Below are positions 1-18,709 of a stretch of DNA of 64,000 bases, in pieces. Position numbers and translations under genes: made by a program. The notes beneath the pieces were generated by a model. The model did not search any database and was not told the DNA's origin. It saw only the letters and a program-made list of their open reading frames with translations. The stretch comes from a virus. Lineage: Duplodnaviria; Heunggongvirae; Uroviricota; Caudoviricetes. Location of the stretch: IMG/VR virus record IMGVR_UViG_3300050581_000228, one strand, 5' to 3'. Within the stretch, counting starts at the first letter, position 1. The number at the start of each line of letters is the position of its first letter.

Positions 1-1666
1 GATTGGTCAGAGAACACACGTCATGCGTCTCAATGGCCTCCTCGAACTCCTTCCCAAGGTTCTCCACGGCCTCTTGATAGCTCACCGTAGAGAGCGGCTG
101 GCCGCCGCGCGCCCCATCGGGGTAGCAGGTGAAGCCGCGAAGACGCGGGGCATACTTCGCCAGCGTCAAGGCAAAATCGTTCACCGTGTCGGGATTGTTC
201 CGCTTGCTTCCCCACTTGGGCAGATTGATCGTGCTGCTGATGGCCTGATCCACGTAGTCCTGGATGTCGGCCTGCACCCTCATCCGCCGCTCATAGTCCT
301 CTGCAAGGTCGAGGGCGCTTTCCACTTGGTCAGGATCAAGGCCGTAGAGCTTGATTAGCTCTTGGGCGGCCGAATCCACGACGTACTGGTAATGCCACTT
401 GGTCCCCTCCCGCAGATACCGGCGCTTGTAGGCGACGGCGAAGATCGGCTCGATGCCGGTGCTGGTGCCGGCGAGAATGCCGATCGTTCCTGTCGGCGCG
501 ATGGCGCGTCGGGCGATCGGACGCGAGACGCCCAGCTTATCGGCGAACTCGTTCGAGACCTTATTCGTGACGCCCCGGTAGAACCTCAGCCAGTTGTGAA
601 GCTCGGGTGTTACCTCGTAACGATAGCCGTGTTTGAGCAGCCATTCGTGAATGCCCATCAAGCCGACGCCCAGCCGGCGGTTTTTCTCTCGGACCTTCTG
701 AATCTTCTCGTAGGGCAGGTCCGCCCGGAGCGTTCCGCAGAGCAGGAACTTGGTGGCCAGTTCGAGGACTGTCTTGTACTCCTCGATGTTCTCGATGCGT
801 CCCAGGTTCACGCTGCCAAGGTTGCACACGTCGGAGTCGTCTCCACTGACGACCTCCGTGCAGGCGTTTCTCAGCGTGTCTCGCTCTTGCTCGAACAGGT
901 TGAACGAGAACCCAGGCTCGGCCGTCGAGACAGCCTGCAAGACATTCCGCTTGAACAACTCGCCAGGATCGCCAGTTTGACACAACGGGAGGAACCACGA
1001 TGTATCGTAGTTCACCGAGATGTTCGTCATGTCCAGCGGCGCGGGCCAGTTCTGGTCGTGTTGCTTGACCTCGGCCAGCGTCAGCCGCGTGCCGGGGACG
1101 AGCAGGTCGTGCCAGTTCTTCACGGTCAGGAACTTTTCGATGTCGCCGTGTCGCCAGTTCAGCGAGGCATAGATAGCGGATCGCCGGCTGCCGCCCTGCA
1201 TGACGTTGCGGCCAATCTCGTTTATCATCAGCATCTTGGGGATCGGCCCACTGGCGTATCCTCCCGTGCCGGAGAGGATCGAATTGCTCTTGCGATAGAT
1301 CGAGTAGTCGATGCCGATCCCGCCGCCGGTCATCAGGCAGCTTTCCGCCTTCCAGCTAAGATTGGCCCAATCCTCGCGCGAGTCCTCTTCTGCGCACAGA
1401 AGGTAACAGTTGTTGTAGAATTTGCGCGTGCGACCGGCATAGTAGAGATAACGACCGCCGGGGATGAACTTGAGATCGCGGATGAAGCCTCTGAGTAACT
1501 GCATCTCGTCATCGGAGAGCAGTTGCTTATGGTGCGGATTCTTGGTCTCGGGCAGCTTTCCGCACACGTCCTCCACCAATACGTCGGCCAGCTTCGCCCA
1601 TGTCTCGCATCCGGTATGTTGATATTTGGCAATGAAGATGTCCTCGCTGAACTTCGAGCGGAACAT
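1..1666 (-). CDS. ribonucleotide reductase catalytic (large) subunit, partial (C-terminus beyond window start)
   Basis: Hand translation of the minus strand from about 1666 gives MFRSKFSEDIF...KFIPGGRYLYYAGR...NCYLLCAEEDS...GGGIGIDYSIYR...DVCNLGSVNL...LPKWGS. This is the RNR barrel with the CNLGS motif typical of class II/NrdJ-like enzymes. The ORF is absent from the track because it has no stop in the window. Confidence 0.85.
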   Translation of the reverse strand, partial: MFRSKFSEDIFIAKYQHTGCETWAKLADVLVEDVCGKLPETKNPHHKQLLSDDEMQLLRGFIRDLKFIPGGRYLYYAGRTRKFYNNCYLLCAEEDSREDWANLSWKAESCLMTGGGIGIDYSIYRKSNSILSGTGGYASGPIPKMLMINEIGRNVMQGGSRRSAIYASLNWRHGDIEKFLTVKNWHDLLVPGTRLTLAEVKQHDQNWPAPLDMTNISVNYDTSWFLPLCQTGDPGELFKRNVLQAVSTAEPGFSFNLFEQERDTLRNACTEVVSGDDSDVCNLGSVNLGRIENIEEYKTVLELATKFLLCGTLRADLPYEKIQKVREKNRRLGVGLMGIHEWLLKHGYRYEVTPELHNWLRFYRGVTNKVSNEFADKLGVSRPIARRAIAPTGTIGILAGTSTGIEPIFAVAYKRRYLREGTKWHYQYVVDSAAQELIKLYGLDPDQVESALDLAEDYERRMRVQADIQDYVDQAISSTINLPKWGSKRNNPDTVNDFALTLAKYAPRLRGFTCYPDGARGGQPLSTVSYQEAVENLGKEFEEAIETHDVCSLTN

Positions 1667-1888
1667 CGGATTGACTTCGGAATGAAACGTCAAGGTTGCT
1701 TGCTCCCAGGGGACATAGTTGCGGGCCGTAATGAAAGAGTGATGACGGGAATTAGCGCACTCTCTTCCAGCGTGTCATCGGGATGCTGGAAATCGAGCGA
1801 GAAATGAGAGGTGGGGCAATTGAGTTGTTCCATGCCGATCGCCATGCCCTCAAAGATCGTGGCGACGGCTTCGCCGCGCATGAGCGAG

Positions 1889-2231
1889 TCACGCAAACGG
1901 GTTAGAGCCTTTGGGGCAATCGGCATCGGGGTCAACCTTTATGAGTGTGGCGTGGGTGGGTAAACGGTCTTTCTTCCGAAGGCCGAGCTTCTCCTTGACG
2001 AGTCCGCGCGCCTCGCTACGGGTGTTCGCGCGAACCATGCCGTTCCGGCCGTTGCATTCCCAATGCCACTCGAACCGTGGCGGATTGAGGCGCGGGTCCA
2101 GGATCATTCCACCGGCAATCGCCTTGCGTTTGATCTCACGCTTGACCTTTGCCAGGGCTTCCTGGTAGCCGATCCTGCGCGGGCGTCGGGGGAGGGAGTC
2201 GAAGTATTCAATCCGTGTGCGTCTCATCGTC
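1889..2231 (-). CDS. small basic hypothetical protein
   Basis: The 1889..2344 ORF probably starts at MTMRRTRIEYFD; the upstream part overlaps the GNAT gene. Lysine/arginine rich. Confidence 0.3.
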
Positions 2232-2700
2232 ATGCCAGGGGAATAGGGTGCGAGAACAGAACTCCGTCCTCCGGCTGCCCATAGAACGTGAAGTAATCTC
2301 TGAGCAGCGGGACTTCGGCGCGGAAGCCGAGCTTGGTCAGCCAACCGCTGATGTCATCCGGCTCGCCCGGCCGCAGCCGACCCTCCGGCACGAGCATCAG
2401 CAGTTCGATCGCGCCGATTTCACGGGCAAACATGGCGCAGTTGTGGATCAGCCGGCGACCAATGCCCTGGTGCCGGAAAGGAGCCTTCACGGCGACCTTC
2501 TCGATCTCAACATCGCCTTGACGGTTGTTGCGGAACACCACCATGCCGATCGGCGTGCCTCGCCATGTCGCAACGCACGCCATGCAGTCCTGGGCGATTC
2601 GCCGCCAGTCTTTCGGCAGCCAGGCGTAATCGAAGCACTTGATGTCGATGTCCAGCAGATAGTGGGCATCTTGTTCATTGCTAGCACGAATCTGAATCAT
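2230..2700 (-). CDS. GNAT family N-acetyltransferase
   Basis: Acetyl-CoA binding motif VAVKAPFRHQGIGRRL (Q/RxxGxG); size of 156 aa fits. Confidence 0.8.
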   Translation of the reverse strand: MIQIRASNEQDAHYLLDIDIKCFDYAWLPKDWRRIAQDCMACVATWRGTPIGMVVFRNNRQGDVEIEKVAVKAPFRHQGIGRRLIHNCAMFAREIGAIELLMLVPEGRLRPGEPDDISGWLTKLGFRAEVPLLRDYFTFYGQPEDGVLFSHPIPLA

Positions 2701-2702
2701 CT

Positions 2703-3698
2703 CTACTTCCTGAACTGGGGCCTCGCTATCTGGGCGAACAGGTTCTCCTGGACCGACCCATCTGATTGCAGAGCAATCACCTTCTGCTCAAGGTGCTGAC
2801 ACTTGGCGTCGTTTTCCTCGCGGCTCAGGTCGCGGAATATCCAGCCGGTCGTGATTGCATCCCAGCACTCGACCATCCTGCTGAGCACCTTCATCTGATG
2901 AGCGTTGCTCACGCGGGCGCGTTGCTGGGCGATTCGCAACAGCGGTCGGCCTTCCGGCATGTACTTGCTGACGATTTCGTCGATGCAGCACACTACCTCT
3001 TCGTCGCCTATCCGTTCGCCAAGGAGCCAACCGTACATGCAGAGTTGGTCGGCGTACTCCTCGTTGCCGCTTTCCATGTACAACTGATTGATCTCGAATC
3101 CGTGGTGGTCATACGGCACGTAGTCCTTGTGTGCCGTGTTGTGACTCTTGCTCGCCTTGAACGGCGGGCCATAGCCGTCACGGCAAAGGCGGTAGTTCTT
3201 GCTCGGAGAGGCTCCATACTTCGAGCAGAAACCCTTGACCTTCCAATCGAGGATTACGTGGACGCCGCATTCGTGAATGAAGCGACAGTCCGGCTTGCCG
3301 ACGATCGGCACGCCTTTGATCTCGCTACGGACCTCGAACTCAAACCGAGGCGGCTCCTTCGACTTCTGGAGCATGGCCAACAATTCGGCGAACGCGCCGG
3401 TCAGCACGTAGCAGTCGAAGATGTATTTGCCCGCGTCCAGCGCGAAGTCGCGGTTGTGCGGCTCGACTTGGTTCTCGAAAATCGCGGTAAAGTCAAACTG
3501 TGGATCGGCCCCTTTGCCGAACAGCCGCTCATGCAAAGCCGACTTCGCGTAGGCGTCGAAGCCCGCACCGACGCTCATGTAGACCTCTTGGGCGATGCGT
3601 GGGGCGCGCGTCTCGGCCAGATGCTTGATGTAGAACTCTTCTGTGTCTTTTCCCCACAAGGTCAGCGAGGAATGGCTGAGGTAGGTTGGTTTACGCAT
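2703..3698 (-). CDS. PD-(D/E)XK nuclease superfamily protein
   Basis: Likely start MRKPTYLSHSSL. PD...D.K core GKPDCRFIHECGVHVILDWKV. The start overlaps the upstream HAD gene by 8 nt. Confidence 0.5.
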   Translation of the reverse strand: MRKPTYLSHSSLTLWGKDTEEFYIKHLAETRAPRIAQEVYMSVGAGFDAYAKSALHERLFGKGADPQFDFTAIFENQVEPHNRDFALDAGKYIFDCYVLTGAFAELLAMLQKSKEPPRFEFEVRSEIKGVPIVGKPDCRFIHECGVHVILDWKVKGFCSKYGASPSKNYRLCRDGYGPPFKASKSHNTAHKDYVPYDHHGFEINQLYMESGNEEYADQLCMYGWLLGERIGDEEVVCCIDEIVSKYMPEGRPLLRIAQQRARVSNAHQMKVLSRMVECWDAITTGWIFRDLSREENDAKCQHLEQKVIALQSDGSVQENLFAQIARPQFRK

Positions 3699-4209
3699 CG
3701 AGCATCTCCTGAATCGCGCGCCGTAGGTAATCCACGGCTGTGTGGTCTTTGAGCGAATTCCACGGTCGCGGGCATAACAAGGTGGCTCCACCGGCCTGAC
3801 GGAAGGCCAGAATGTTGCTTTCGCGGTCGTCGATCAGCAACGTGCGCCCGTTGGCACACCACGCCTTGTTGGGCGTCAGGACGAATCGCCGCGTGTAGTT
3901 CGGCATTTGCTGTTCGATCCATCGCAGTTTGCCCTCGGCTGAACCGGGCCAAGAGGCAGGCGTGGAACAGATCACCACGTTCTCCGGCCCCACGGCATCT
4001 TCACAGAGGGCCACTATCCCGCGACCGTCCTCCATCCACGGAAGAGTTGCCCACCAGATCGCATCCGTCTTGCCCCAGAGTTCCGCATCGGTAATCTGGA
4101 GTTCGCCGCGATGAAACGCCGTGTTCACATCCATGCCATGTAGGTCATGGACGGGAGATTGGAGATCGACGATCACGCCGTCCATGTCCAGGAAGATGAG
4201 CTTGTTCAT
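3691..4209 (-). CDS. HAD superfamily 5'(3')-deoxyribonucleotidase-like phosphatase
   Basis: MNKLIFLDMDGVIVD (DxDxV) and LLIDD motifs. NT5C-like enzymes are common in phages. Paralog of the 10511..11080 gene. Confidence 0.65.
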   Translation of the reverse strand: MNKLIFLDMDGVIVDLQSPVHDLHGMDVNTAFHRGELQITDAELWGKTDAIWWATLPWMEDGRGIVALCEDAVGPENVVICSTPASWPGSAEGKLRWIEQQMPNYTRRFVLTPNKAWCANGRTLLIDDRESNILAFRQAGGATLLCPRPWNSLKDHTAVDYLRRAIQEMLDA

Positions 4210-4514
4210 GCTGGCTGTCCGTCCCTCCCGTTGACGCAAGGCGTATTGGCATTGCGCAGCGGCACCCCATGCTGCTCGAAACAGGCGACTCCGAGCGTCA
4301 CGACTTTTCGCAGACTCTCCAAGGTCTTCTCGTCGCCGTCCTCGCAGGTTGCCATGCGGAACGCCTGGTCAAGGTAGTGCCCCATGTAGACCAGGAATTC
4401 GCCGACAGTGCGCTTGTGCTCCTGGAAAGTGCCGTTCCATTGGCGTTGCCCCCAGCGGCGGGCTTGGTAGGCACGCTCGCTGGCAATCGCGTCGAAAATC
4501 ATGTCGATGGTCAT
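4206..4514 (-). CDS. hypothetical protein, possibly an all-alpha MazG-like NTP pyrophosphohydrolase
   Basis: 102 aa. ERAYQARRW...VGEFLVYMGHYL...EDGDEKTLESL loosely resembles the MazG EExxE/D pattern. ATGA coupling to the ligase gene stop. Confidence 0.35.
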   Translation of the reverse strand: MTIDMIFDAIASERAYQARRWGQRQWNGTFQEHKRTVGEFLVYMGHYLDQAFRMATCEDGDEKTLESLRKVVTLGVACFEQHGVPLRNANTPCVNGRDGQPA

Positions 4515-5584
4515 TCGTTGTCCTGTGCGCCTTTCCGATCGAGATAGTCCGCGCTCACGCTTTTCAAGATCAGCCGACCGCCGGTAGGAGCGTAGAATTG
4601 CTCAACCTGCGGGGTGATGACGCAGCCTTCTCGATCCTTAAAGCTGCTCTTGATCTTGTCTGAAGTAGCCAGCGTCGTGGGACCGTAGGTGAACTGCCTC
4701 ACGAGGTCTTTGCTGAACGGTCCCTCGTAGAGCACGGGGACCAGTTCGACGCCGAACTGGGCGCAGGCGGCTTTCAACGCCTCCCAGTCGAGATACCTGC
4801 CGTTGACGCTGATGTCGAAAACCCGGTAGCCGTCCTTGTCCTTGACTCCATAGTCGAGGTCTTGAACACACGCCCCGAAGATTTCCCCGAAAACGATCAC
4901 CGAGTTCTTCTCATCGCAGAGATGCGTGAGGAGATTCAAGACGCATTCGTCTTCGAGCGGCTTCCAGTAGATGCACGCCTTGCCTTCTTCCGGTTTCTTC
5001 CGCCTGGTCCGATGGCTCCCGGCCATGAACTCGAATTCGCCGTTCTTGAGGATCAGACCAACCCGGCTGTTCGTGCCGTGAATCTTCTCCGTGATCCGAA
5101 CGATTGTTCCTTCCGCGAAGGCATCGGGATAGCGCCAGATGTTCTCGATTTCTGTGTACTTGTGGAACTGGCTGTCCTCTGGCGCGAGATCGCCGGCAAA
5201 ATACTTGGCCGGCGGCTCGTACTTCTTGGCGGCCCACATCACCGACACGTCGCTCCCCAGGGGATGGGCGCGCAAGAGGTCGGGGGCAGGGATGATGAAA
5301 CCGAAGCTCGGTTCGCCTCGCAGCCGGCAGGCTGCCACCCGACACTGGCACTTGATGCCGTCGAGTTCGGCGTGTTTGAGATACTTCTGGATGCCGAGCG
5401 TTTGGCTGACATCCTGTGGGATCAGAATTCCGGGATGGAAAAAGACAACCCGCTGACCGTGTTGGAACTCGCCCTTGCCGACGATCGTTGTAAGACCCTT
5501 GATGACCGCGATTTCCAGTTTGCTCGCGTTCGGATGGGGCCTGATCTCGTCAATGGCGGTGAGTTCAACGAAAATGTTGGACAT
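4511..5584 (-). CDS. RNA ligase (Rnl2-like nucleotidyltransferase, KIHGTN motif I) with N-terminal tRNA-binding-like OB domain (DraRnl/NgrRnl Rnl5-like architecture)
   Basis: Motif I TEKIHGTN sits at about aa 168. The N-terminal 130 aa (HPNASKLEIAVIKG...GQRVVFF...ACRLRGEPSFGFI) matches the Myf/EMAPII-type tRNA-binding domain pattern. Confidence 0.7.
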   Translation of the reverse strand: MSNIFVELTAIDEIRPHPNASKLEIAVIKGLTTIVGKGEFQHGQRVVFFHPGILIPQDVSQTLGIQKYLKHAELDGIKCQCRVAACRLRGEPSFGFIIPAPDLLRAHPLGSDVSVMWAAKKYEPPAKYFAGDLAPEDSQFHKYTEIENIWRYPDAFAEGTIVRITEKIHGTNSRVGLILKNGEFEFMAGSHRTRRKKPEEGKACIYWKPLEDECVLNLLTHLCDEKNSVIVFGEIFGACVQDLDYGVKDKDGYRVFDISVNGRYLDWEALKAACAQFGVELVPVLYEGPFSKDLVRQFTYGPTTLATSDKIKSSFKDREGCVITPQVEQFYAPTGGRLILKSVSADYLDRKGAQDNE

Positions 5585-5828
5585 AGGCGCGCACCTTGAG
5601 CGCTGGAGGATGGTTGGAGGAAAAGCTAGAGCAACGCCAGACGCGGTTGGCGAGTCCTCTTCAACAGAGACCGCTTGCGCTAGTCGAGTGGTTTAAGTCA
5701 ACCTGGGAGTCTCCCAAGTATCAGGGCGCACGCTGCCTTTTCGAGCAACGTCTTTTCCGGCAGCTAGGGACTGCTCTCCAGCGTTGTCGCTGGCATATTG
5801 CTCAGCCCATCAACTCCCAGGTTGAAGG

Positions 5829-6248
5829 TTATTGAAGGTCTTTGAGGATCGACCGGAGGTACTTGCGGGCAGCCTTGAATCGCAGAATCAGGGCACTGCC
5901 GAGGCAGCCGCCGATCGCCATGCCGACGCCAGAAAGCGTCGATGACGCCAGGTTGGTCAACGTCTCGGTGCCGTGAGTGGCTGCGTAGACCAGGGCAGCA
6001 ACGCCTGACACGGCGACCAGAACCAGGGCAAAGGCCCCGGTGGCGTAGGCAGCCGTGCGCCGCGACCAATGGCCGAGCTTCCTGCCGGCAGGCTTTTCCA
6101 GGACGTTCCGGCGGAAGAAGTCGTGGATGTTCTGGCCCGGCGAGCGATCCAGAGAGATCGTTTGCCTGCCTTCTCCGTTGTCCACGTTCAGCCAGGTGCC
6201 TTCATCGTCCCGGTTGATTTCCACGGTTGTTTCGATAGTTCTGTTCAT
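5829..6248 (-). CDS. hypothetical membrane protein
   Basis: Start MNRTIETTVEIN. C-terminal hydrophobic helices (AFALVLVAVSGVAALVYA, GVGMAIGGCLGSALIL). Confidence 0.4.
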   Translation of the reverse strand: MNRTIETTVEINRDDEGTWLNVDNGEGRQTISLDRSPGQNIHDFFRRNVLEKPAGRKLGHWSRRTAAYATGAFALVLVAVSGVAALVYAATHGTETLTNLASSTLSGVGMAIGGCLGSALILRFKAARKYLRSILKDLQ

Positions 6249-6472
6249 GGATACCTTTTCTCCCGGACCTTGGGCAGTTCGCGCGGGAACTGGCCCACGT
6301 CGTTCAGCACGTTCTCCTCGGCGTACCGCTTGCCGCCCTCGATGATGCCTGCGGCAACGAGCTTCTCCAGGAGCCTGGTCGCCGAGACCCACTGGGACTC
6401 AATCACCAGTCGGCCGTCGATATAGAGGGCTTCCTTCTGGTCTGGAATAGCCACGAGCAATACTTGACTCAT
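6245..6472 (-). CDS. small hypothetical protein
   Basis: MSQVLLVAIPDQKEALYIDG..., 75 aa. ATGA overlap with the stop of the upstream methyltransferase gene. Confidence 0.4.
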   Translation of the reverse strand: MSQVLLVAIPDQKEALYIDGRLVIESQWVSATRLLEKLVAAGIIEGGKRYAEENVLNDVGQFPRELPKVREKRYP

Positions 6473-7107
6473 CGCAATGCCTCCTCTGGCAGGAAATAGT
6501 GTGGTTGGACGCCGTGAACGTTGAAGATCACGACTTCGCAGTGGAACTCGACGCCTGGAAACACATCCAGGGGAAGGCTGACGACCGATGTGATCCTGGC
6601 ACCGCAGTCTCGTAGCCACCGCCAACGTGTGCTTCGTATCCGCTGATTCAGACGAAAGCCCATCGGCGTGAACATGGCGACGGGCATGGTCGGGCGGAAC
6701 AACGTGAACACATGCGACAGGAAGACCTCTGGATAGAGTCGCTTCCCCGCAGCGCCATTGAAGGGTGGGTTGCAAACCACCACATCTGCCTCGGCGAGCA
6801 TCGTTTTGTCGGTGATGTCCTCGAACCGTCCCGTGTGGCAGAAATCACACTGCGATTCGTCCACGTGCGGGTCAATATCGCAACCGAGCACGCGACATCC
6901 AGCCTTCTTCCAAGGGTCGGTCAATCGGCCGGTGCCGATCGCCGGGTCGAGCACCGTCTTGAACTGCGGATGCCGCAGGACGTTGTAGGACATCGAGTTG
7001 TAAAGGATGTCGAACAGGAAGCTCGCAACGCCAGGCGGCGTGTAGATCGTGCTAGGCTTCGGGTTCCTCCGGTAATCGTTTCGTGAAACTGTCAAAGGAC
7101 TCGGCAT
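6469..7107 (-). CDS. N6-adenine DNA methyltransferase
   Basis: Motif I DPAIGTG followed by motif IV NPPF. Confidence 0.8.
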   Translation of the reverse strand: MPSPLTVSRNDYRRNPKPSTIYTPPGVASFLFDILYNSMSYNVLRHPQFKTVLDPAIGTGRLTDPWKKAGCRVLGCDIDPHVDESQCDFCHTGRFEDITDKTMLAEADVVVCNPPFNGAAGKRLYPEVFLSHVFTLFRPTMPVAMFTPMGFRLNQRIRSTRWRWLRDCGARITSVVSLPLDVFPGVEFHCEVVIFNVHGVQPHYFLPEEALR

Positions 7108-7820
7108 CGGTCTTCCATTGGTCGCTCGTGGTCAATCGTCTCCGCAAGCACTTGCTCGACTCGTTGGACGGCCTCAGCAAAATACTTGGCGTCCTTCTCG
7201 ATTCCCACGAAGCGCTTGCCGCTTCGGATCGCGGCTTCGGCCGTGGCACCCGATCCCATGAACCAGTCGCCGATCGTCTCGCCCGGCATCAAAGTCACCA
7301 GTCGTTGCAGGAGTTCGATCGGCTTCTCGGCCGGATGGATGCGATTGCTCGTCGGAACAACCTTGCACGATAGAACAGTCCCTTGGGTGTCCGTGAGCGT
7401 CGCGCCGGTGCCGGAGCACGCCAGGATCAATTCGTGCTGATGCCGCCACGGCCGCCCCATTCCGATCCGCTCCTTGTTCCAGACCAGGCAGACGGATCGC
7501 GGGAACAGGCTGTAGGTAGCTTCGTAGAACACCGGGTAGCTCTGGGCATCACAGAAGAACAGATGGTGTGAGTCCTTGCCGGCAACTTTCTGTGACAGGC
7601 CCACAATCTGCTCAAACCAGCCCCGCAGAATGCTCAGGTCCGCGTAGCAACGGGTCCAGCAATCCTCAGCCCGGCTGGCGTAATGCTGGGCCGGCAGGAA
7701 GAACGGCGGGTCGGTAATGACCGCATCGACCATGCCGGCTGGCAGCCGTCTCAAGACGTGCTCGGCATCACCGCAGAACAGCGAAATGTCGTTCTGCTGC
7801 CAATCAGGCTTCAGGGTCAT
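7092..7820 (-). CDS. DNA methyltransferase (beta-class N4-C/N6-A, ParB-associated type)
   Basis: DPPF near the N-terminus, then HPAEKP and GSGATAEAA (FxGxG-like), the order seen in DNA_methylase N-4/N-6 family. Probable start MTLKPDWQQ. Confidence 0.8.
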   Translation of the reverse strand: MTLKPDWQQNDISLFCGDAEHVLRRLPAGMVDAVITDPPFFLPAQHYASRAEDCWTRCYADLSILRGWFEQIVGLSQKVAGKDSHHLFFCDAQSYPVFYEATYSLFPRSVCLVWNKERIGMGRPWRHQHELILACSGTGATLTDTQGTVLSCKVVPTSNRIHPAEKPIELLQRLVTLMPGETIGDWFMGSGATAEAAIRSGKRFVGIEKDAKYFAEAVQRVEQVLAETIDHERPMEDRCRVL

Positions 7821-8908
7821 TCCACGTCCCTCCGTCGCCAATAGCGGGCTTCCTTCGGGATTCCGTCATCGGTGAGTTCCCGGTACTTGAACGTGACCGT
7901 CTGGCCTGTCTTGAAGCACTTCCCCTGGAAGAATGCTGGCATATCCTCGCCCGGATGCTCGGCCGCCGTGCGGCTCATGTCGGGATTGAGAAACTCGCGC
8001 TCGGCGTCCGTCAGGCCGGCAAGCTCCAGTCGCTTGCCCCTGTAGTCCACGATCAGTGCGCCAATCTTGCCCAGAAGTCGGCTGCCCTTGTTCGTCTCAC
8101 GACCAGACGTGAAACCAACGACCGTAGCCTCAGCGTCCTCGTAGGGTTTGAATTTGAGTAAGCCCTTGTGCCGTTTCGGCGTCCAGGGGGCCATCGGATC
8201 GCGGATCACACAGCCCTCCCCGCCTTGGTCGAGAACCTTTTGGAGGAAATCATTGACATTCGCTTGTGCCTCATCCTCACCCTCCGGCAACCGAAGCTGC
8301 TGATGAATGAAGACCCGATCATTCTGGGTCTCCAAGAACTCGCGCAGGAACATCAACTCATCGTTGAAGGTCGCCGGTGTGTTGACCCAGCCATAACCCG
8401 GCATCCTGTCGATCCGGGGCTTGAACCATTGTTCGATCTGCTCGAAGGCCAGGCTGCGGACCATGTTGGCGTTCTTGATCTCCCCCGACATGAACACGTA
8501 GGGAAGCGCAGGAGCGCTGTAGACCGCATAGCTGATGCGATGGAATCGCGGGTCCGGCTCATCGCCGCCGCAGATCGAGCGGCAAAGCTGGAAATTGCCA
8601 CGACCGGCCCACAATTCCCCATCGAGCGGACACGCCGGAAGGGCATTCAGAAAATCATCCGGGGCCATGATCGGATTACCATACCGGGACCACAGACCCG
8701 TGGCTTTCGGCTTGAGTTTCAACTTTCTCTTGCCGGTTTTCGGGTCTGTCACGCTGGCCCACGGTACTTGTTCGGTAGGGACGCCACGACTCGCGCCGCC
8801 GTCCCAGAAGCAGCGCGTTCCGTCGAGCTTCTCGCTGACCAAGTAGCCGGCGATCTTGTGCTTGTCCGGGTTGTAGGTATCGGCCAGTTGGAGAAACTCA
8901 CGACGCAT
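7817..8908 (-). CDS. ATP-dependent DNA ligase
   Basis: Probable start MRREFLQ. Motif I SEKLDGTR, motif III LDGELW, motif IV EGCVIRD, motif V LLKFK. Confidence 0.85.
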   Translation of the reverse strand: MRREFLQLADTYNPDKHKIAGYLVSEKLDGTRCFWDGGASRGVPTEQVPWASVTDPKTGKRKLKLKPKATGLWSRYGNPIMAPDDFLNALPACPLDGELWAGRGNFQLCRSICGGDEPDPRFHRISYAVYSAPALPYVFMSGEIKNANMVRSLAFEQIEQWFKPRIDRMPGYGWVNTPATFNDELMFLREFLETQNDRVFIHQQLRLPEGEDEAQANVNDFLQKVLDQGGEGCVIRDPMAPWTPKRHKGLLKFKPYEDAEATVVGFTSGRETNKGSRLLGKIGALIVDYRGKRLELAGLTDAEREFLNPDMSRTAAEHPGEDMPAFFQGKCFKTGQTVTFKYRELTDDGIPKEARYWRRRDVE

Positions 8909-9182
8909 TATGTCGCTCCAGGTGCTTGAATGCGGACTCGCTGTAATCGGCAAGGAAACTGCCGGCGCACCCGCAGGCAAACATGACGAACGGATTGAGG
9001 CTGACCAACGGACTGAGCAGGACGCCGCACCAGAAGCCCGCGCACTGGTAGCACTCAAACAAGCCGTGGTAGAGCTTCGGCGGCAGGTGTTGGCGCGCCC
9101 ATGTATCCACCGGCTCCATGATCTCGCTGTCGATCAGGATGTGAGTCATGCCGATGACGGCCAGAAAGAACAGCCAGATCAT
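8898..9182 (-). CDS. small cysteine-rich membrane protein, hypothetical
   Basis: 94 aa. Hydrophobic N-terminus MIWLFFLAVIG, then CYQCAGFWCGVLLSPLV. Confidence 0.4.
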   Translation of the reverse strand: MIWLFFLAVIGMTHILIDSEIMEPVDTWARQHLPPKLYHGLFECYQCAGFWCGVLLSPLVSLNPFVMFACGCAGSFLADYSESAFKHLERHNAS

Positions 9183-9964
9183 ATTGGCAACTCCGTTGGA
9201 TTGTGGACCGCCGTGCCGTTCACCCAGTCGAACACGCGGAACTGCCCACCTTCCGTGATTCGCACGAAGCTATTGACCCGCTCGGCCCAGGTGCCACAGT
9301 TGTAGTGCCACTCGCCGATCCGACCTGGCTTGTGGGTATGTCCGCAGACCGTCACGTCGGCGATCGGCGGCATCTCTCGCAGGTTGCGGTTGATGGCCGT
9401 GAACCGATCGGGCTTGCCGCGCAGGCGGTTCCAGAAGCTCACGAGCTTCTCAAGACGCCCGACCGTCCGGTCTTCGACCGTGCGGTACTTGTCGAGCATC
9501 GGCCCATCGTTGCGATCCTCGGCAAGCCCTGAGTAGATCGCCGTGATCCGTCCGAGTCCGGGCGTATCGCTGGAGCAGAACGGATCGGCTTGGTGACCGT
9601 GGATGAATCGCACTGACTTGCCAGCGATCCTCTCCTCGTGTTCAGCGCACATCGTCGAGAAGAACGGATATTCCAGCCAACCTTCCTTGTGCATGAAGTA
9701 ATAAAGGTCGGCATCGTGATTCCCAAGGACGTAGATTGCCTCCATGTCCGCTAGGCGGTCCAGCAGCCGTTCACGATTCGTCAGAACCTTGCTGATGTTG
9801 CTCTGCCACAACTCGAACAGATCGCCGCAGATAATCAACCGGCCGTTGTTACCGTCAACCATTTTGAGGAAGCGCTTGAACTGCTTCTCGCGGTCGCCAT
9901 GCGCGAAGTTATCGCGCGGCCCGCCATCTCCCATGTGCAAATCGCTTATGCAGTAGGTTTGCAT
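9179..9964 (-). CDS. calcineurin-like metallophosphoesterase
   Basis: DLHMGDG, GDLFE, GNHD, GHTH motifs. Confidence 0.8.
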   Translation of the reverse strand: MQTYCISDLHMGDGGPRDNFAHGDREKQFKRFLKMVDGNNGRLIICGDLFELWQSNISKVLTNRERLLDRLADMEAIYVLGNHDADLYYFMHKEGWLEYPFFSTMCAEHEERIAGKSVRFIHGHQADPFCSSDTPGLGRITAIYSGLAEDRNDGPMLDKYRTVEDRTVGRLEKLVSFWNRLRGKPDRFTAINRNLREMPPIADVTVCGHTHKPGRIGEWHYNCGTWAERVNSFVRITEGGQFRVFDWVNGTAVHNPTELPI

Positions 9965-10100
9965 GTTGGCTCCAAGTCATCCGGGTGCCGGTCGAATTCG
10001 AGCCACTCGTTGAGTTGGCGTCGAATGACCGATTCGACGACCTCCAGATCGGCGTCGTCGGGCATGTTGTCAAGTTGCAGATGTACGGTGATGTTCATAA

Positions 10101-10172
10101 AAGCCAGCGGCAGGAATCGAACCTGCGCCCCGCTGATTACAAGTCAGCGGCTCTACCATTGAGCTACACTGG
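10101..10172 (-). tRNA. tRNA-Thr (anticodon TGT)
   Basis: Reverse complement folds as GCCAGTG-TA-GCTC/AATGGTA/GAGC-C-GCTGA/CTTGTAA/TCAGC-GGGGC-GCAGG/TTCGATT/CCTGC-CGCTGGC-T, a canonical cloverleaf of 72 nt. Confidence 0.8.
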
Positions 10173-10337
10173 CTCCAGCCCGATCAGACCTGCGCGTCGG
10201 CGCTGGTCGTCTCGGCCTGGTCGCACGTGGCCGCCTCGGCGGCTTCGGTGCTCTGCTGGGCCTCGGGAAGAGCCTGCTCTTCCGGCTGCGGGCCACTCTG
10301 GGTTTCGTCGTGCGTCATTGCGAGCACTCCTGTGGGG

Positions 10338-10511
10338 TTAGAAATGGGCAGGGCGTCCAGTGCGATTCGCAATCGCAAGTCCCTGCTTGATCGCCTTTTT
10401 CTTCGCCGCCTTGCGGCTGGCTGCATTGCCTGGCGAATAGGTGTAGACCTTGCCAGCTTCGCCATAGCGATAGCCGGGCTTTCCGTTTTGCGTCGTTCGT
10501 TGGATGGGCAT
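10338..10511 (-). CDS. small hypothetical protein (57 aa, below the ORF-track cutoff)
   Basis: MPIQRTTQNGKPGYRYGEAGKVYTYSPGNAASRKAAKKKAIKQGLAIANRTGRPAHF. Its ATG overlaps the TGA of the upstream HAD gene (ATGA coupling). Confidence 0.35.
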   Translation of the reverse strand: MPIQRTTQNGKPGYRYGEAGKVYTYSPGNAASRKAAKKKAIKQGLAIANRTGRPAHF

Positions 10512-11080
10512 CACAATCTCCCAAATTGCTCGCCGAGATAACTCATCGGGTCACGGCCGTGCAGCGAGTTCCACGGGCGCGGCACAAGAAGCGACGTGCC
10601 TCCCTGTTCTTGGAAAGCAGCGACGTTCTTATCGCTGTCGTCGATGAGCAGAGCGCCGGGCTTTGCGCAGAGATGCTTAGAAGGTCCGATGAGGAACTGC
10701 CTCTGCATCCATTTCGGAGCACACCGCTGAATCCACTCCAGCTTGCCGGCTAGGCAATCGGGGCTAAGCGTCGGACTGGTCAGGAAGTGGACGTTCTGCT
10801 TCCCGACCCTGGCCTCGGCCCAACCGACAATGAAGCCGAACTCCGGCGAGGGTGGCGTGCTAGCCCACAATTCGCGCGTAATCGAGTTCCAGAAGCCGGC
10901 CGGCGTGAAACGGTCATAACCCGCCAAGCGATTCGCGGCACTTACAATGTCCCAGCCGCACTCGACCGGATAGGCGGAATCATCCGGGTAGTGCAGGCCG
11001 AGATGGTCAAATACGTGTTTGTGGAAGACGTTGGAGACGCCATCAATGTCGAGCAAGATAGCTGTGATCTTTTGGCTCAT
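10511..11080 (-). CDS. HAD superfamily 5'-nucleotidase-like phosphatase (paralog of 3691..4209)
   Basis: Start MSQKITAILLDIDGV. LLIDDSDKNV and LLVPRPWNSL match LLIDD and LCPRPWNSL of the first copy. Confidence 0.6.
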   Translation of the reverse strand: MSQKITAILLDIDGVSNVFHKHVFDHLGLHYPDDSAYPVECGWDIVSAANRLAGYDRFTPAGFWNSITRELWASTPPSPEFGFIVGWAEARVGKQNVHFLTSPTLSPDCLAGKLEWIQRCAPKWMQRQFLIGPSKHLCAKPGALLIDDSDKNVAAFQEQGGTSLLVPRPWNSLHGRDPMSYLGEQFGRL

Positions 11081-11750
11081 TTCTGTACTCCGGGCGTCGA
11101 TCCTTGAGACGCTCGAATAGCTTCTTTCGCCGTTTTGTGATGGTCGAATGACTGGACATGCCGACCGCCTTTGCGATCTCGCTATCCGTGTGCTCAGCAC
11201 TCTTCATCTCGACGATCTTCACGTCGATCTCATCGCGGCAAGATGCCCTGATCTCATCCTCAAGCTCGTGGCCGGCGGCAATGTCAACCGTGGATAGCCG
11301 TGAGAAGCAGGATTCCGTAGCCTTTAGCCCAACTGCTCGTGGAGGCGTAATCGGTTTTCCCTGCTGACGTGCCAGCTTTTGGGTTTCGTGCGGCACAACG
11401 ATTGTTGACTCCTCGTCCGCGACCTTTGCCAAATGATTGTCGATGGCGGTGTAGATGTACCCCGTGGGATTGGGTTTCTTCACGCGGCCCTTCTTTTGCA
11501 TCATGTCAACCGCCTCACACAACCCGACCAGACCTGCTGACACGAGGTCGTCACGGAAGAATGTGAAGTGGGGACACTCGCGCAAAAAGGCTTCCACTCG
11601 CACGATGACGAGCGCCATGTTGCCTTGAATCATCTCGTCGCGCGCGGCTTGGTCGCCTTGAACAAGACGCTCGTAGAGTGCGTTGTTCTTTTCACGCGAC
11701 AATGGCTCGCTGTAGCCCGCAGCCCGACTCTGTTCCAGTAAACTCTTCAT
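11043..11750 (-). CDS. sigma-70 family RNA polymerase sigma factor
   Basis: Region 2-like ALYERLVQGDQAARDEMIQGNMALV. Region 4 HTH SEIAKAVGMSSHSTITKRRKKLFERL. Confidence 0.7.
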   Translation of the reverse strand: MKSLLEQSRAAGYSEPLSREKNNALYERLVQGDQAARDEMIQGNMALVIVRVEAFLRECPHFTFFRDDLVSAGLVGLCEAVDMMQKKGRVKKPNPTGYIYTAIDNHLAKVADEESTIVVPHETQKLARQQGKPITPPRAVGLKATESCFSRLSTVDIAAGHELEDEIRASCRDEIDVKIVEMKSAEHTDSEIAKAVGMSSHSTITKRRKKLFERLKDRRPEYRNEPKDHSYLARH

Positions 11751-13243: not shown

Positions 13244-15820
13244 CTACATCATCTCCGGCGCGCGAATCTTGACCTTCTCCGCTCCGTCCTTCTTCTCCGC
13301 CCAATTGGCCATCTCCTCGAACCAGGACATGCCGATTAGCGGCACCTTGTCGCGGTAGGACTCCACGACTCTACGAACCGTTGCCGTCACCTGCTTCACG
13401 ACGCTTGGGTGCGTGCTGCACATGAGTTCGTCATGGACGTTCATCGGGCCGACGAGAAGCTCATGGATTCCCGCTGGCTGGATGTCCCAGATCGCCCGCT
13501 GCACGGCCTTCGTGATCTGGCCGCCGGGCGACTGAATCTCATGGTTGGCCGCCGCTCGCATGTTGGCGGCTTGAATCTGGAAGGCGGCTCCGTACAAGGC
13601 GCTGGCAACGGCACCGCCGGCGGTCTGAATCCTGTCATTGCGATGGACCTTGACTGGGTGGTTCCGCCAGCCTTTCGGCGGTTTCCGAGCAAGCTCAAAC
13701 AGCGCCCGGCAAATCTTGTTCTCCAGGGTGAAGTAGCGGCGGAAGCCCAGGAAGCTCTCGACGTACTCGGCCGGCTCGTCCCACACGACCTGCGAGCCGA
13801 TGCCGCCGGGTTGCTTCATCGAGCAGAACTTCCTTATGGTTCGCTCGCGGGCCTTGCCGATGCCCTTATACCGATTGGCCCATTCCTCGTGAGCTTTCTT
13901 CGCCTGCGCCTCGTTGATGCTCAGATTGCGTTGCAGCGTCTTTTCGTTGCCGCCGTAAATCTCGGCGAAGACGCCGCTCTTGCCCTTCTTGTACTTCTCC
14001 TTGTCCGCGACCACTTCCTCGTAGCTGCAATCGAAGAGAACCATGCCGAAGAGGGCGTGAATCTTCTTGGTTCCAATGCCGGTCCCATCGCACTCCTCGC
14101 ATTCATGTGTGCCAGCGCCGTGGCACTTCCTGCACTTCTTCGATGAGCACTTGCCAGTACCGTTGCAGTCGATGCAAGGTGCCTTGGTAACAAGGGTCTT
14201 GCGAATCTCAGGATCGTTGTAAACCGCATCGGCGATCGTGACCTCGAAGCTGTCGAAGTCGCCTCCGCAGAGGTTGTAGCCCGGCCAAGCCAGTGGGAAC
14301 ATGCAGCGGACTTCATCCGATCCCTTGATCCCTTGGGCGTTCAGGCCATCGCCGCCGCTCATGCGGTTGCTGAGCGTGCCCACGATGTTGAAGCTCGCGT
14401 GGAACTTGCCAGCGAAGATCAACTTGGTGAAAAGCTCGACCTCCTTGATCGCGTGCTTGACATTCAGCAAGTCTTTAGCTCGCACAGCGGCGGGGTGAGG
14501 CTCACCGGCCTTGAGATGGCCGCGCCCGCGACACCGCTGGCAGACGCCACCCTCATACCTTCCGGTTCTATCGCACTTCATGCAGAACTCGTGGACGTGG
14601 ATGCCGTCCCATCCTTCAACGCCATCGGTGCCGATGTCATCTTCCTCGTCGTCTTCGATGACCTGGTACTTCTCGACCTTTTCGAGGTTCTGCTTCTTGG
14701 TAGACTCTTGAATCTTGAGGCTTTCGGTGTCGTCCATGACTTCCATCAGGTAGGCACGGACGGCGGCCGGCTTATTGATGTTGACGGGAGAGGCCGCAAC
14801 CACGGCCTGGGCCTTGGCCAACAACTCCGTCATCCCTTCGACGTTGATGGTGAAACCGCGCCAACGAATAACGGGCACCATGCACGCCAAGATCGAATCG
14901 TCATCGCCCGGCGTCGGAAAGCCGAAATGTTCATCGAGCGCTCGCGTGTAAACGATGTCGTCGGTTGCGTAGTCGCGGGCATCTGTCCGCGCTGCCCAGT
15001 GCTCGATGAAGTGATGGATGACAGCCGGCCACGCTCGGCCCGCGAGCTTCTGCTTGCCATCTTTTTCAATCCACACTTCCCAGTTCTTCTCCGGGCTGCT
15101 CACGGCCAGGGCAGTCGGGGCGTAGCCGAGTTCGTAAGGTCGCCACGCGGGGTCCGGTTCAACGTCCTTGTAGTGATACTTGGGCGTCAAGCCCATCGCA
15201 TGTTCCGCAAGGAACTTCAGTCCGCCGGCCGGATTGAATCGCAGCACGACATCCTTGAAGTCGGGGTCCACCAAGCCCGTTTTCGTATCGCGGCGATCAA
15301 ACGCCTGCCACTTGGGCGCGTCCTTGTCGGCGCTCTTGGCGAAGTAGATGTCGTCAAGCTCGATCCGCTGCTCCAACTCCTGCGCCAGGGCATAGGCCAG
15401 TGCGGTGGGCACTTTCCGAATCCTGATGTCCTCGCGGGCCATCAGGCTTTGATACGGTCCCTTGCGGGAGTGTAACAGGAGATCGAGGGCGCTAGCCGGC
15501 TTCACGCACGGGCCATCCTTACCCTTCGGTTCCAGCAGCGCGATCTCCTCGATATGCTCGCAAGGAATCCAATCGGGTTTCGCCAAGCGGAATGTCGTGT
15601 AGCACTTGACGATGTGAAACCAGTCGAACGCCAGGTTGAACCCGACAACGGTATGCTGGCAAATCCATTCGATCAAGGAAAGAGTCTCGGAGATTGGCCG
15701 CCGCCAAACCTCGTGGAGGACAATGGGACCATCTTCCTCAGCGTACTGGAGGAGCACCATTTGGGAATGCAGCCCGCACGTCTCCGTATCGAGGTAGACT
15801 TTCGATGGAAAGTCACTCAT
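13244..15820 (-). CDS. family A DNA polymerase with 3'-5' exonuclease domain and DnaJ-type CxxCxGxG zinc-finger insertions
   Basis: Exo I VYLDTETCGL. Motif A GGDFDSFEVTIADAV. Motif B KEKYKKGKSGVFAEIYGG. Motif C VHDELM. Inserts CMKCDRTGRYEGGVCQRCRGRGH and CIDCNGTGKCSSKKCRKCHGAGTHECEECDGTG. Confidence 0.9.
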   Translation of the reverse strand: MSDFPSKVYLDTETCGLHSQMVLLQYAEEDGPIVLHEVWRRPISETLSLIEWICQHTVVGFNLAFDWFHIVKCYTTFRLAKPDWIPCEHIEEIALLEPKGKDGPCVKPASALDLLLHSRKGPYQSLMAREDIRIRKVPTALAYALAQELEQRIELDDIYFAKSADKDAPKWQAFDRRDTKTGLVDPDFKDVVLRFNPAGGLKFLAEHAMGLTPKYHYKDVEPDPAWRPYELGYAPTALAVSSPEKNWEVWIEKDGKQKLAGRAWPAVIHHFIEHWAARTDARDYATDDIVYTRALDEHFGFPTPGDDDSILACMVPVIRWRGFTINVEGMTELLAKAQAVVAASPVNINKPAAVRAYLMEVMDDTESLKIQESTKKQNLEKVEKYQVIEDDEEDDIGTDGVEGWDGIHVHEFCMKCDRTGRYEGGVCQRCRGRGHLKAGEPHPAAVRAKDLLNVKHAIKEVELFTKLIFAGKFHASFNIVGTLSNRMSGGDGLNAQGIKGSDEVRCMFPLAWPGYNLCGGDFDSFEVTIADAVYNDPEIRKTLVTKAPCIDCNGTGKCSSKKCRKCHGAGTHECEECDGTGIGTKKIHALFGMVLFDCSYEEVVADKEKYKKGKSGVFAEIYGGNEKTLQRNLSINEAQAKKAHEEWANRYKGIGKARERTIRKFCSMKQPGGIGSQVVWDEPAEYVESFLGFRRYFTLENKICRALFELARKPPKGWRNHPVKVHRNDRIQTAGGAVASALYGAAFQIQAANMRAAANHEIQSPGGQITKAVQRAIWDIQPAGIHELLVGPMNVHDELMCSTHPSVVKQVTATVRRVVESYRDKVPLIGMSWFEEMANWAEKKDGAEKVKIRAPEMM

Positions 15821-16139
15821 CGTCATCCTCATCGTGCGGTAGGAATGGACAGCACTCCCAGGCATCTGGATATTCACCTAGTTCCTGGAGCTTTGCCAAA
15901 GCACTCCGAACAGCGAATACGGCGTTGTCGCACTGCTCTTGTGCAACGTGCCATCCTTTACAACGACACACGTCCTCGAAGTCATCTTCACACTCGTAGG
16001 CCACCTCGATAGCGCAGGCATAATCCTGCCAGGCTTGAGCAATGTGACGAAAGCGGCCACATTCACAAGTGAGTCGCCTCACGCGAATCAGGAGACAAGT
16101 GGTGATAGCCAGGAATAGAACACTTATCAGTAGGATCAT
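15813..16139 (-). CDS. hypothetical membrane-anchored Cys-rich protein
   Basis: N-terminal TM segment MILLISVLFLAITTCLLI; acidic C-terminus; several Cys pairs. Confidence 0.35.
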   Translation of the reverse strand: MILLISVLFLAITTCLLIRVRRLTCECGRFRHIAQAWQDYACAIEVAYECEDDFEDVCRCKGWHVAQEQCDNAVFAVRSALAKLQELGEYPDAWECCPFLPHDEDDDE

Positions 16140-16141
16140 GG

Positions 16142-16537
16142 TTATGGCACTTTCGGCCGAGGCGTGAACACCTTGTAGCCGTCCTCGTCGTAGGTCAAAT
16201 CAGAGTAGTAGCGTTTGTCGATGGATCGTTGTTCGGCCTCTTGCTCAAGCATGAACCGCTCGTAACGTTCCTCAGCATCCCACGCCTTCAGTGCTTGCTT
16301 GAGTGTTGGAAAGATGCCCAAGAGCGCGCCCCGGTAGGTGGCCCTAGCGCGATCGCCAACGACCTCAACGCCCTCGCCGAATGGCAGGAGTCGTCGGGCC
16401 TTGGGCGGCGGAATAGGCCGTTTCTGGGCAATCGCTTCCTTGACGGTTTCTGCTTCGTCCTCTTCAAGGCGATAGATCACCTTGCCGTTCGGCAGCTTGA
16501 CAGCGAATTGGAAGTCGTTCTCGTATTGCTCGTACAT
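16142..16537 (-). CDS. hypothetical protein
   Basis: 131 aa ORF with an ATG start; no motif recognised. Confidence 0.4.
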   Translation of the reverse strand: MYEQYENDFQFAVKLPNGKVIYRLEEDEAETVKEAIAQKRPIPPPKARRLLPFGEGVEVVGDRARATYRGALLGIFPTLKQALKAWDAEERYERFMLEQEAEQRSIDKRYYSDLTYDEDGYKVFTPRPKVP

Positions 16538-16547
16538 GGTGTAAGCT

Positions 16548-16670
16548 CAGAGGGCCTCGGCATTCCACACGGCTTCCGCGTGCCACGCGGGTGTCACCGT
16601 TACAGCCTGGCTAAGGCAGTCCTAGTCATTGGCCGTGCGGTCTATAGGTTCAGCGCAGTTGCGCGCCGAG
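16548..16670 (-). ncRNA. candidate structured RNA in the rsr 3' intergenic region (14 bp perfect inverted repeat closing a roughly 95 nt domain; contains UGACUAG)
   Basis: CAGAGGGCCTCGGC at about 16548-16561 pairs with GCCGAGGCCCTCTG at about 16657-16670. The minus-strand RNA contains CAAUGACUAGGAC. Strand is assigned by context. Coordinates carry about 8 nt uncertainty because of the display/ORF-track discrepancy here. Confidence 0.3.
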
Positions 16671-16690
16671 GCCCTCTGATGATTCAGGGC

Positions 16691-18352: not shown

Positions 18353-18442
18353 GCGCTTCGGCCCAATGTTTTGCCGGGCAAGGAATGCCGATCGGTGTTT
18401 GTCAACTGAAGGTGAGATAACCGATGCAGCTTCGGCCCGGAG

Positions 18443-18572: not shown

Positions 18573-18581
18573 CACGAGAGC

Positions 18582-18701: not shown

Positions 18702-18709
18702 CAAATCGT

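Follow-up and report, generated by a model that had tools for sequence, protein, structure and literature searches.

A 64,000-nt stretch of DNA from a Caudoviricetes virus (IMG/VR record IMGVR_UViG_3300050581_000228), referred to here at its full length as the window, carries a minus-strand block of six translationally coupled genes at positions 1889-5584 that opens with an RNA ligase gene of the Rnl5 type and continues with genes for a small helical protein, a HAD phosphatase, a PD-(D/E)XK nuclease, a GNAT acetyltransferase, and a small basic protein. The block is probably a set of independently acting replication, repair, and nucleotide-pool genes rather than one pathway, a view that draws on the family assignments of the products, the gene junctions, and the mosaic phyletic pattern of the block, and that extends to proposals on the substrates and on the absence of a shared pathway. 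An initial annotation, made from the sequence of the window, had grouped ligase, phosphatase, and nuclease in an RNA or tRNA repair operon; this reading is disfavored by an NT5C-type HAD protein, a nuclease resembling DNA exonucleases, the lack of a kinase-like P-loop ORF in the window, and a gene set that is not conserved. The features of the block and of its two edges are as follows.

4511-5584, minus strand: predicted Rnl5 RNA ligase, 357 aa, first gene of the block
4206-4514, minus strand: small helical protein, 102 aa, second gene of the block
3691-4209, minus strand: HAD phosphatase, NT5C-like, 172 aa, start ATG at 4209
2703-3698, minus strand: PD-(D/E)XK nuclease, 331 aa
2230-2700, minus strand: GNAT acetyltransferase, 156 aa (PF00583, 1.3e-12)
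1889-2233, minus strand: small basic protein, 114 aa, last gene of the block
5585-5828, minus strand: non-coding gap of 244 nt, upstream edge of the block and the sole sizeable gap upstream of it
1667-1888, minus strand: non-coding gap of 222 nt, downstream edge, between the basic protein gene and a ribonucleotide reductase (RNR) gene

Gene junctions and block limits

In the list of open reading frames (ORFs), positions 2703-5584 hold four consecutive minus-strand ORFs, whose junctions were read from the sequence and each then checked by script. The stop codon of the ligase gene and the start codon of the 102-aa gene share an ATGA overlap, and the HAD and nuclease genes overlap by 8 nt; both junctions had been described in this way at the outset, and the script agreed. 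A 34-nt overlap between the 102-aa and HAD genes, in contrast, turned out to be an artifact of an upstream TTG that serves as the longest-ORF start of the HAD gene. Its most likely start is the ATG at 4209, which has GGGAGG upstream and yields a 4-nt ATGA overlap with the stop of the 102-aa gene. The operon had been delimited as 2703-5584; its four genes stand, but the end at 2703 does not, since the block runs on to 1889. Beyond that end, the GNAT gene starts 2 nt past the nuclease stop, and the start of the 114-aa gene overlaps the GNAT stop by a further ATGA.

The overlaps support the proposed translational coupling of the ligase-operon genes. However, between 9964 and 1666, ATGA overlaps make up seven of the 13 consecutive gene junctions, and coupling is thus generic along the whole array rather than special to the ligase block. 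Co-expression of the block genes would reflect the tight gene packing of phages and not membership in one pathway.

Scans of positions 1-10500 for sigma-70 promoters and intrinsic terminators detected none on the minus strand, either within the block or at its edges, with counts of such sites at or below the shuffled expectation; because no bounding site was obtained, the operon boundaries are those set by the two gaps. When the upstream gap (5585-5828) was aligned with three relatives, conservation was confined to the last ~50 nt before the ligase ATG, a segment kept in the two closest relatives and including AAGGTG 8 nt before the ATG. This gap, which has no Rfam match, is a possible promoter or 5′ untranslated region of the block. 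On its minus strand, it also has a near-palindrome, TGGGAG-A-CTCCCA, followed by TTGACT.

Gene content across related and distant phages

The comparison covered 80 viral loci encoding ligase homologs that are 33-75% identical to the window protein (individual genomes and loci are designated below by L numbers). The relatives come from IMG/VR, as contigs 80-150 kb long, and homologs were binned with Planctomycetota. In close and moderate relatives, the genes generally run from DNA ligase and RNA ligase through a variable stretch to the nuclease, an optional methylase, GNAT, and the small basic protein. The GNAT gene comes after the nuclease gene in L001, L002, L004, L006, and L016, and the position of the 114-aa basic protein after GNAT is likewise kept in relatives. 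Within the variable stretch between RNA ligase and nuclease, the 102-aa protein recurs in just one other genome. L001 and L004 are both devoid of it: the former has a 58-aa acidic, Cys-rich protein with two CxxC motifs in its place, and the stretch is empty in the latter. A Nudix hydrolase (PF00293) follows the HAD gene in four relatives, and a C5 methylase, an AAA_28 ATPase, a DeoC aldolase, a deoxyribosyltransferase-like protein, an HExxH protein, or an HNH endonuclease lies between ligase and nuclease in others.

The relative L016, whose shared proteins are 64-84% identical to those of the window (84% for the nuclease), is missing both the RNA ligase gene and the HAD gene adjacent to it, and it retains the order of upstream ORF, 102-aa protein, nuclease, GNAT, small basic protein, and RNR. 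The metallophosphoesterase gene is also retained with the DNA ligase gene in this genome. Of the 80 ligase loci, 19 have the nuclease family, 18 an NT5C-like gene (directly next to the ligase in four and beyond the nuclease in L027), 25 an ATP-dependent DNA ligase, and two the 102-aa family. About 55 of the 80, all with ligase identity below 47%, are without the nuclease, the NT5C-like gene, and the 102-aa family. Clustering of all ORFs within 4 kb of the ligase in these 80 loci found no partner family in more than 15 of them, and in cultured phages with Rnl5 homologs the ligase has unrelated neighbors (helicase, DNA polymerase, and hypothetical genes). The expectation that the same gene set would be linked across ligase-bearing genomes, as in a conserved repair operon, is contradicted by the loss in L016, by the ~55 loci without partners, and by the neighborhoods in cultured phages. 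The block is an evolutionary mosaic, its members probably having been gained and lost independently.

An Rnl5-type RNA ligase

From its sequence, the product of 4511-5584 is predicted to be a bona fide Rnl5 (DraRnl/NgrRnl-type) ATP-dependent RNA ligase. Against the NCBIfam equivalog model TIGR02306 (RNA_lig_DRB0094; trusted cut-off 151.15 bits), the protein scores 160.3 bits in an alignment that takes in positions 8-341 of the 341 in the model; for the Rnl2 model TIGR02307, it reaches just 36 bits (cut-off 197). It also matches PF09414 RNA_ligase (2.7e-20), the PHA02142 OB-fold domain PF21189 (29.8 bits against a cut-off of 27), and phrog_968 "RNA ligase" (3e-38). Its best solved-structure match is NgrRnl (5cot; E value 3e-10), aligned over NgrRnl residues 12-178, that is, from the N-terminal domain through motif I. 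As in DraRnl and NgrRnl, an OB domain (approximately residues 1-130) precedes a nucleotidyltransferase domain, and no C-terminal module follows. Rnl5 enzymes end ~30 aa after motif IV and have no C-terminal domain (PMC1807946); the window ligase has motif IV at 318-322 and 35 aa beyond it, up to its last residue at 357.

The motifs in common with DraRnl and NgrRnl are TEKxHG, FGE, YEGPF, REGxV, and the motif V lysine. In the window ligase, they read ITEKIHGTN in motif I (T165-E-K167-I-H169-G170), VIVFGEIF in motif III (F-G233-E234), YEGPFSKDL in motif IIIa, REGCVI in motif IV (R318-E319-G320-x-V322), and LILKSVS in motif V (K341); those of DraRnl are TEKLHG, SK, VQIFGEVV, YEGPFDEAT, EGVVV, and SVK (PMC1807946). 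Twelve phage homologs all share residues T165, K167, G170, G233, E234, R318, E319, G320, V322, and K341, and H169 is nearly invariant among them. This histidine (KIHG) is found in DraRnl and Rnl2, whereas NgrRnl has KLDG. The motif Ia region reads G-S190-H191-R192 in the window ligase, S-H-K/R in its close clade, and differently in distant phage homologs, against S185-K186 in DraRnl, a comparison in which the register is uncertain. With its motifs intact, the ligase is predicted to be catalytically competent. The DraRnl/NgrRnl-type architecture that had been assigned to it is borne out by the TIGR02306 score, the NgrRnl match of the N-terminal domain, and the KxHG nucleotidyltransferase domain.

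A resemblance of the N-terminal domain to the Myf/EMAPII tRNA-binding OB fold had also been claimed, and it holds at the superfamily level. A profile of 18 N-terminal domains found NgrRnl (E value 2.5e-20) together with tRNA-binding OB folds in the range of 1e-5 to 4e-3, namely the MetRS C-domain (1.4e-5), PheRS beta (2.4e-5), a putative tRNA-binding protein (1.3e-4), and YgjH and TyrRS-C (both 4e-3), but EMAPII itself was not significant (E value ~1). This likeness agrees with the reported similarity of the DraRnl OB domain to the PheRS OB fold (PMC1807946).

By homology to DraRnl and NgrRnl, the ligase would adenylylate K167 and then seal 3′-OH/5′-PO4 nicks in duplexes in which the 3′-OH strand ends in ribonucleotides, a reaction that in Rnl5 ligases is Mn2+-dependent; the Rnl5 enzymes characterized so far require a nicked duplex rather than a break in an anticodon loop (PMC4408790, PMC5397189). 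By tblastn, 221 records of cultured phages contain ligase homologs, at 33% identity or less, and DraRnl-type members have been named in Aeromonas, Caulobacter, Mycobacterium, and Sinorhizobium phages (PMC4408790). The PHA02142/phrog_968 proteins of phages (Caulobacter and Brevundimonas Dolichocephalovirinae, Pakpunavirus, Aeromonas phages, and others) are full-length homologs annotated as RNA ligases; these phages differ from the window in that the ligase neighbors are unrelated and none has the RecB-like nuclease family of the window. The gene neighborhood of the window ligase also differs from the DraRnl-DR_B0095 pair. The ligase is a new, divergent representative, from a new phage lineage, of a family whose occurrence in phages was already known.

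The HAD phosphatase and its paralog

All four HAD motifs are present in the product of 3691-4209 and align to those of the mitochondrial and cytosolic 5′(3′)-deoxyribonucleotidases (mdN and cdN): motif I as FLD8-M-D10-GV (FLDMDGV), motif II as ICSTP, motif III as the lysine in EGKLRW, and motif IV as LIDDRE. Together with matches of the NT5C type in Pfam, PHROG, and PDB, they uphold the call of a HAD phosphatase. Specifically, the protein reaches 24.0 bits for PF06941 NT5C, 0.8 under the gathering cut-off of 24.8, matches phrog_2643 "5′-3′ deoxyribonucleotidase" at 4e-15, and has mdN and cdN as its closest solved relatives (E values 1.5e-3 to 8e-3). The NT5C deoxyribonucleotidases, both mammalian and bacterial, and phrog_2643 share its four motifs and supply its best matches, but at 172 aa the window protein is short by comparison. 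A match to phrog_415 "polynucleotide kinase" extends over motif I only (residues 8-37), with no stretch passing alone, and no PNKP-type structure was among the PDB matches.

These results mark the protein as NT5C-like, that is, probably of the 5′(3′)-deoxyribonucleotidase and not of the polynucleotide 3′-phosphatase type. They point toward a nucleotidase for deoxynucleoside monophosphates (dNMPs), the very activity that the initial annotation had named as speaking against its own repair proposal. Such an enzyme would dephosphorylate dNMPs for nucleotide-pool control alongside the neighboring RNR. The window also holds a second NT5C-like gene (10511-11200, minus strand), 36% identical to the ligase-adjacent HAD (E value 2e-29). 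It is this second copy that most relatives retain upstream of the DNA ligase gene; the copy beside the RNA ligase is restricted to the closest relatives.

The RecB-like nuclease

The product of 2703-3698 is a RecB/Cas4/RecE-like PD-(D/E)XK nuclease, and the corresponding call made at the outset is substantiated by the catalytic motifs, by PF12705 in homologs, and by Foldseek matches. Residues G134, P136, and D137 (GKPD), D151, W152, K153, Q218, and Y222 are invariant in 32 sequences and make up the RecB-family motifs GxxD, (D/E)xK, and QxxxY. The protein itself has no Pfam match; 460 homologs were found, and eight of 32 match PF12705 PDDEXK_1 (best 6.5e-7). Its AlphaFold model (pLDDT 92.9) retrieved the RecB-family nucleases Cas4 SSO0001, ACE1, AdnAB, RecE, MGME1, and Exo5 at probabilities of 0.94-1.0 and E values of 1e-4 to 1e-2, with TM-scores of just 0.23-0.41. 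The core fold and the three motifs are common to these enzymes and the window nuclease, which differs from them in the low TM-scores, in ~100 aa of extra N-terminal helices, and in having no four-cysteine iron-sulfur (Fe-S) site. An assignment to Cas4 proper was rejected: the four-cysteine Fe-S signature is missing and, because just two cysteines (C158 and C172) are nearly invariant, the protein is not an Fe-S Cas4. The nuclease would process DNA ends. A tblastn search of cultured phages gave no match, and the family is known solely from metagenomic phages and metagenome-assembled genomes.

The small helical protein

The 102-aa protein (4206-4514) had been described as MazG-like, a label that found no confirmation. 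No family match was obtained in Pfam, PHROG, NCBIfam, or PADLOC or by PDB sequence; family members (19 close and 65 distant homologs) are without a meaningful Pfam domain; and two profiles, one of them built from 48 sequences, found no PDB relative, be it MazG, HisE, or dimeric dUTPase. The model of the protein (pLDDT 92.5) consists of three helices and a hairpin, and its fold matches are non-significant. MazG enzymes carry metal-binding acidic motifs, EExxE and, farther along, ExxD. The family of the 102-aa protein follows the pattern E13-R14-x-Y16-Q17...R69-K70...E80..G83 (here, the ERxYQ family), in which E13 and E80 are the sole invariant or near-invariant acidic residues; the conserved residues do not make up an EExxE or ExxD motif, and the MazG-like label is unconfirmed. 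The ERxYQ family is large, with 2303 representative clusters at an E value of at most 1e-3 in a full HMMER search; of the 165 retrieved sequences that show a domain match, 47 contain two tandem copies of the domain.

Proteins of ~115 aa encoded after the ligase in Brevundimonas and Caulobacter phages, in which an LEEAxELA motif is visible by eye, were considered as homologs of the 102-aa protein and rejected (hhalign probability 1-2%; no Pfam match). Next after the RNA ligase, Brevundimonas, Caulobacter, and Pakpunavirus phages encode a protein that, by eye, shows EExxE-like helical motifs (LEEAVELA, EIAEAAE). The genes in question, which have no Pfam match and no detectable homology to the 102-aa protein, are:

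L012, 5219-5563: gene with EExxE-like motifs by eye
L013, 5222-5590: gene with EExxE-like motifs by eye
L014, 5288-6097: gene with EExxE-like motifs by eye

Genomic surroundings

The block lies within the part of a large metagenomic phage that is devoted to replication and nucleotide metabolism. On the same strand, its upstream neighbors are two small ORFs, two DNA methyltransferase genes, an ATP-dependent DNA ligase gene, a small membrane ORF, and a metallophosphoesterase gene, and further upstream are tRNA-Thr (10101-10174), the second NT5C-like gene, PolA, Rsr/Ro60, ParB, and tRNA-Asn. Downstream, a class II-type RNR gene (minus strand) begins at 1666 and runs off the window start; the homologous RNR in L016 carries PF02867 and is followed there by dCMP deaminase and dUTPase genes. 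The operon had been placed next to tRNA genes, which does not hold: the closest, tRNA-Thr, is 4.5 kb and seven genes away from the ligase, and rsr is 11 kb away. The 114-aa basic protein has no Pfam match. PADLOC defense models matched none of eight proteins tested, and megablast of positions 2000-9200 against cultured phages gave no match. No small P-loop ORF resembling a kinase occurs in the window, where G-x4-GK[ST] motifs are found only in two large ORFs (859 and 970 aa).

The Rsr gene and an RNA element adjoining it are located as follows.

16691-18352, minus strand: Rsr/Ro60 gene (PF05731 and PF25045)
18443-18572, minus strand: tRNA-like Rfam match of 130 nt (47.4 bits), ~57 nt longer than a tRNA, directly upstream of the Rsr gene

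The element, for which ARAGORN made no tRNA call, looks like a YrlA-type tRNA-like Y RNA, judging by these features. A general Rsr-ligase linkage was considered and rejected, as just three of 80 Rsr-encoding viral loci have a ligase within 10 kb. Among individual genomes, L146 (10001-12701) has an Rnl5-type ligase gene that starts 14 nt past its Rsr gene. L016 (1-3581, compared with 13244-19633 of the window) has no Rsr between ParB and PolA, and contig 3300037067_002413 has the ligase yet is not among the Rsr matches, and the ligase/Rsr correlation is not strict.

Other neighborhoods of Rnl5-type ligases

In another phage lineage, a Thg1-like gene for tRNA 5′-end repair (PF04446, 97.7 bits) lies downstream of an Rnl5-type ligase gene on the same strand in 11 of the 80 ligase loci. 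This arrangement is a better candidate for an RNA-repair pairing than the gene set of the window. The loci are:

L052, 4509-6468: ligase and Thg1-like gene separated by a 2-nt gap
L057, 9986-11978: longest Thg1 ORF overlaps the ligase end
L045-L047, L056, L066, L070, L079, L086, and L095: further loci with ligase and Thg1-like gene

A protein of ~130-200 aa with an HEAMHD motif and no Pfam match is encoded just after the ligase in 10 loci (L022, L023, L028-L031, L033, L035, L037, and L082), and an HNH homing endonuclease fills the same slot in 10 others.

Alternative explanations

Several observations weigh against a block of independently acting genes. The 244-nt and 222-nt gaps plausibly bound it as a transcription unit. 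The ligase and the adjacent HAD are both present in the five closest genomes (the window and L017-L020) and both absent in L016, a joint pattern that hints at a functional pair. Genes for the ligase and the nuclease family lie on the same strand, 0.9-7.4 kb apart, throughout one phage lineage (at least 47% ligase identity). In addition, DraRnl is encoded in an operon with a putative exonuclease (PMC5397189), and RNA ligases of jumbo phages occur with standalone HAD or calcineurin-like phosphatases, TROVE proteins, and Thg1 in what are described as RNA-repair sets (PMC7824862).

A dedicated RNA or tRNA repair module, as first proposed for this locus, is nevertheless judged unlikely. The nuclease, or a host anticodon nuclease, would break RNA; the HAD protein, perhaps with the upstream metallophosphoesterase, would heal the 3′ ends; and the Rnl5 ligase would reseal them by way of its tRNA-binding-like OB domain, in a module that may cooperate with the phage tRNAs and the Rsr/Y-RNA system. 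Such a module would accord with the relationship of the ligase N-terminal domain to tRNA-binding OB folds, with the tRNAs, Rsr/Ro60, and Rsr-adjoining 130-nt tRNA-like element of the phage, with the shared presence and absence of ligase and HAD in the closest genomes, with the 11 ligase-Thg1 loci, and with the ligase immediately downstream of Rsr in L146. The window also resembles T4 Pnkp/Rnl1 and the repair sets of jumbo phages (Iyer et al. 2021, PMC7824862) in having an RNA ligase, a HAD protein, a calcineurin-like phosphoesterase, tRNA genes, and TROVE/Ro60 in one phage region. Unlike those systems, however, the window yielded no 5′ polynucleotide kinase, its HAD protein is of the NT5C small-molecule type and not of the PNKP type, with the polynucleotide-kinase PHROG matched over motif I alone, and its ligase belongs to a nick-sealing family that needs a nicked duplex, not a loop-sealing one as in T4 Pnkp/Rnl1 repair. 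Moreover, the nuclease resembles DNA exonucleases, the metallophosphoesterase stays with DNA ligase in a genome that has no RNA ligase, and the linkage seen in the window is not conserved, given the ~55 Rnl5 loci without partners. Rsr and ligase are rarely close, and the closest tRNA is 4.5 kb off.

Somewhat less likely still is a DNA repair or recombination pair, in which the Rnl5 ligase and the RecB/Cas4-like nuclease would act on DNA breaks or on replication intermediates with ribonucleotide 3′ ends, and the HAD, GNAT, and small proteins would be passengers. Its model is the Deinococcus operon of rnl and the exonuclease-like DR_B0095, which speeds genome reassembly after irradiation. Such a pairing is conceivable because DraRnl is co-operonic with a DEDDh-like exonuclease gene and its loss delays genome reassembly (PMC5397189). 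Ligase and nuclease are collinear on the same strand in 19 of the 80 loci, and in the window both stand beside an ATP-dependent DNA ligase and PolA. This collinearity can be explained by the shared ancestry of one phage lineage, however, and within that lineage the spacing varies, with unrelated genes in between. In L016, L005, and L008, the nuclease is retained but an RNA ligase is missing from the surrounding 8-10 kb, and the nuclease family is absent from all cultured phages carrying Rnl5 homologs.

A further reading would be quite improbable: in a sub-lineage of planctomycete-type phages, the duplicated NT5C-like HAD would have been recruited beside the Rnl5 ligase as an end-healing enzyme and, with the RecB-like nuclease, would take part in trimming, dephosphorylating, and sealing RNA-terminated breaks. 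These enzymes would act either on ribonucleotide-ended DNA nicks or on damaged tRNA and Y-RNA-like molecules handled with the phage Rsr. If true, the recruitment of the HAD protein and the pathway with the nuclease would give a viral Rnl5 ligase a physiological role for the first time.

The favored account of the block remains that of a mosaic whose genes act independently. A general RNA-repair role for phage Rnl5 enzymes is plausible in light of the jumbo-phage sets (PMC7824862) and of the adjacency of Rnl5 and Thg1 in another lineage, though the neighbors of the ligase in the window do not demonstrate one.

Implications

The physiological roles of Rnl5 ligases have been described as uncharted (PMC5397189), and their phage copies have so far been listed rather than studied. 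The present locus adds a divergent, motif-intact phage Rnl5 from an environmental lineage that also carries Ro60. The comparison across genomes serves mainly as a warning that tight ATGA coupling of phage genes is, on its own, no proof of a shared pathway, and this set of ligase, HAD protein, and nuclease does not form a conserved module. More useful leads than the operon itself are the repeated Rnl5-Thg1 pairing in another phage lineage and the large, unannotated ERxYQ family of helical domains.

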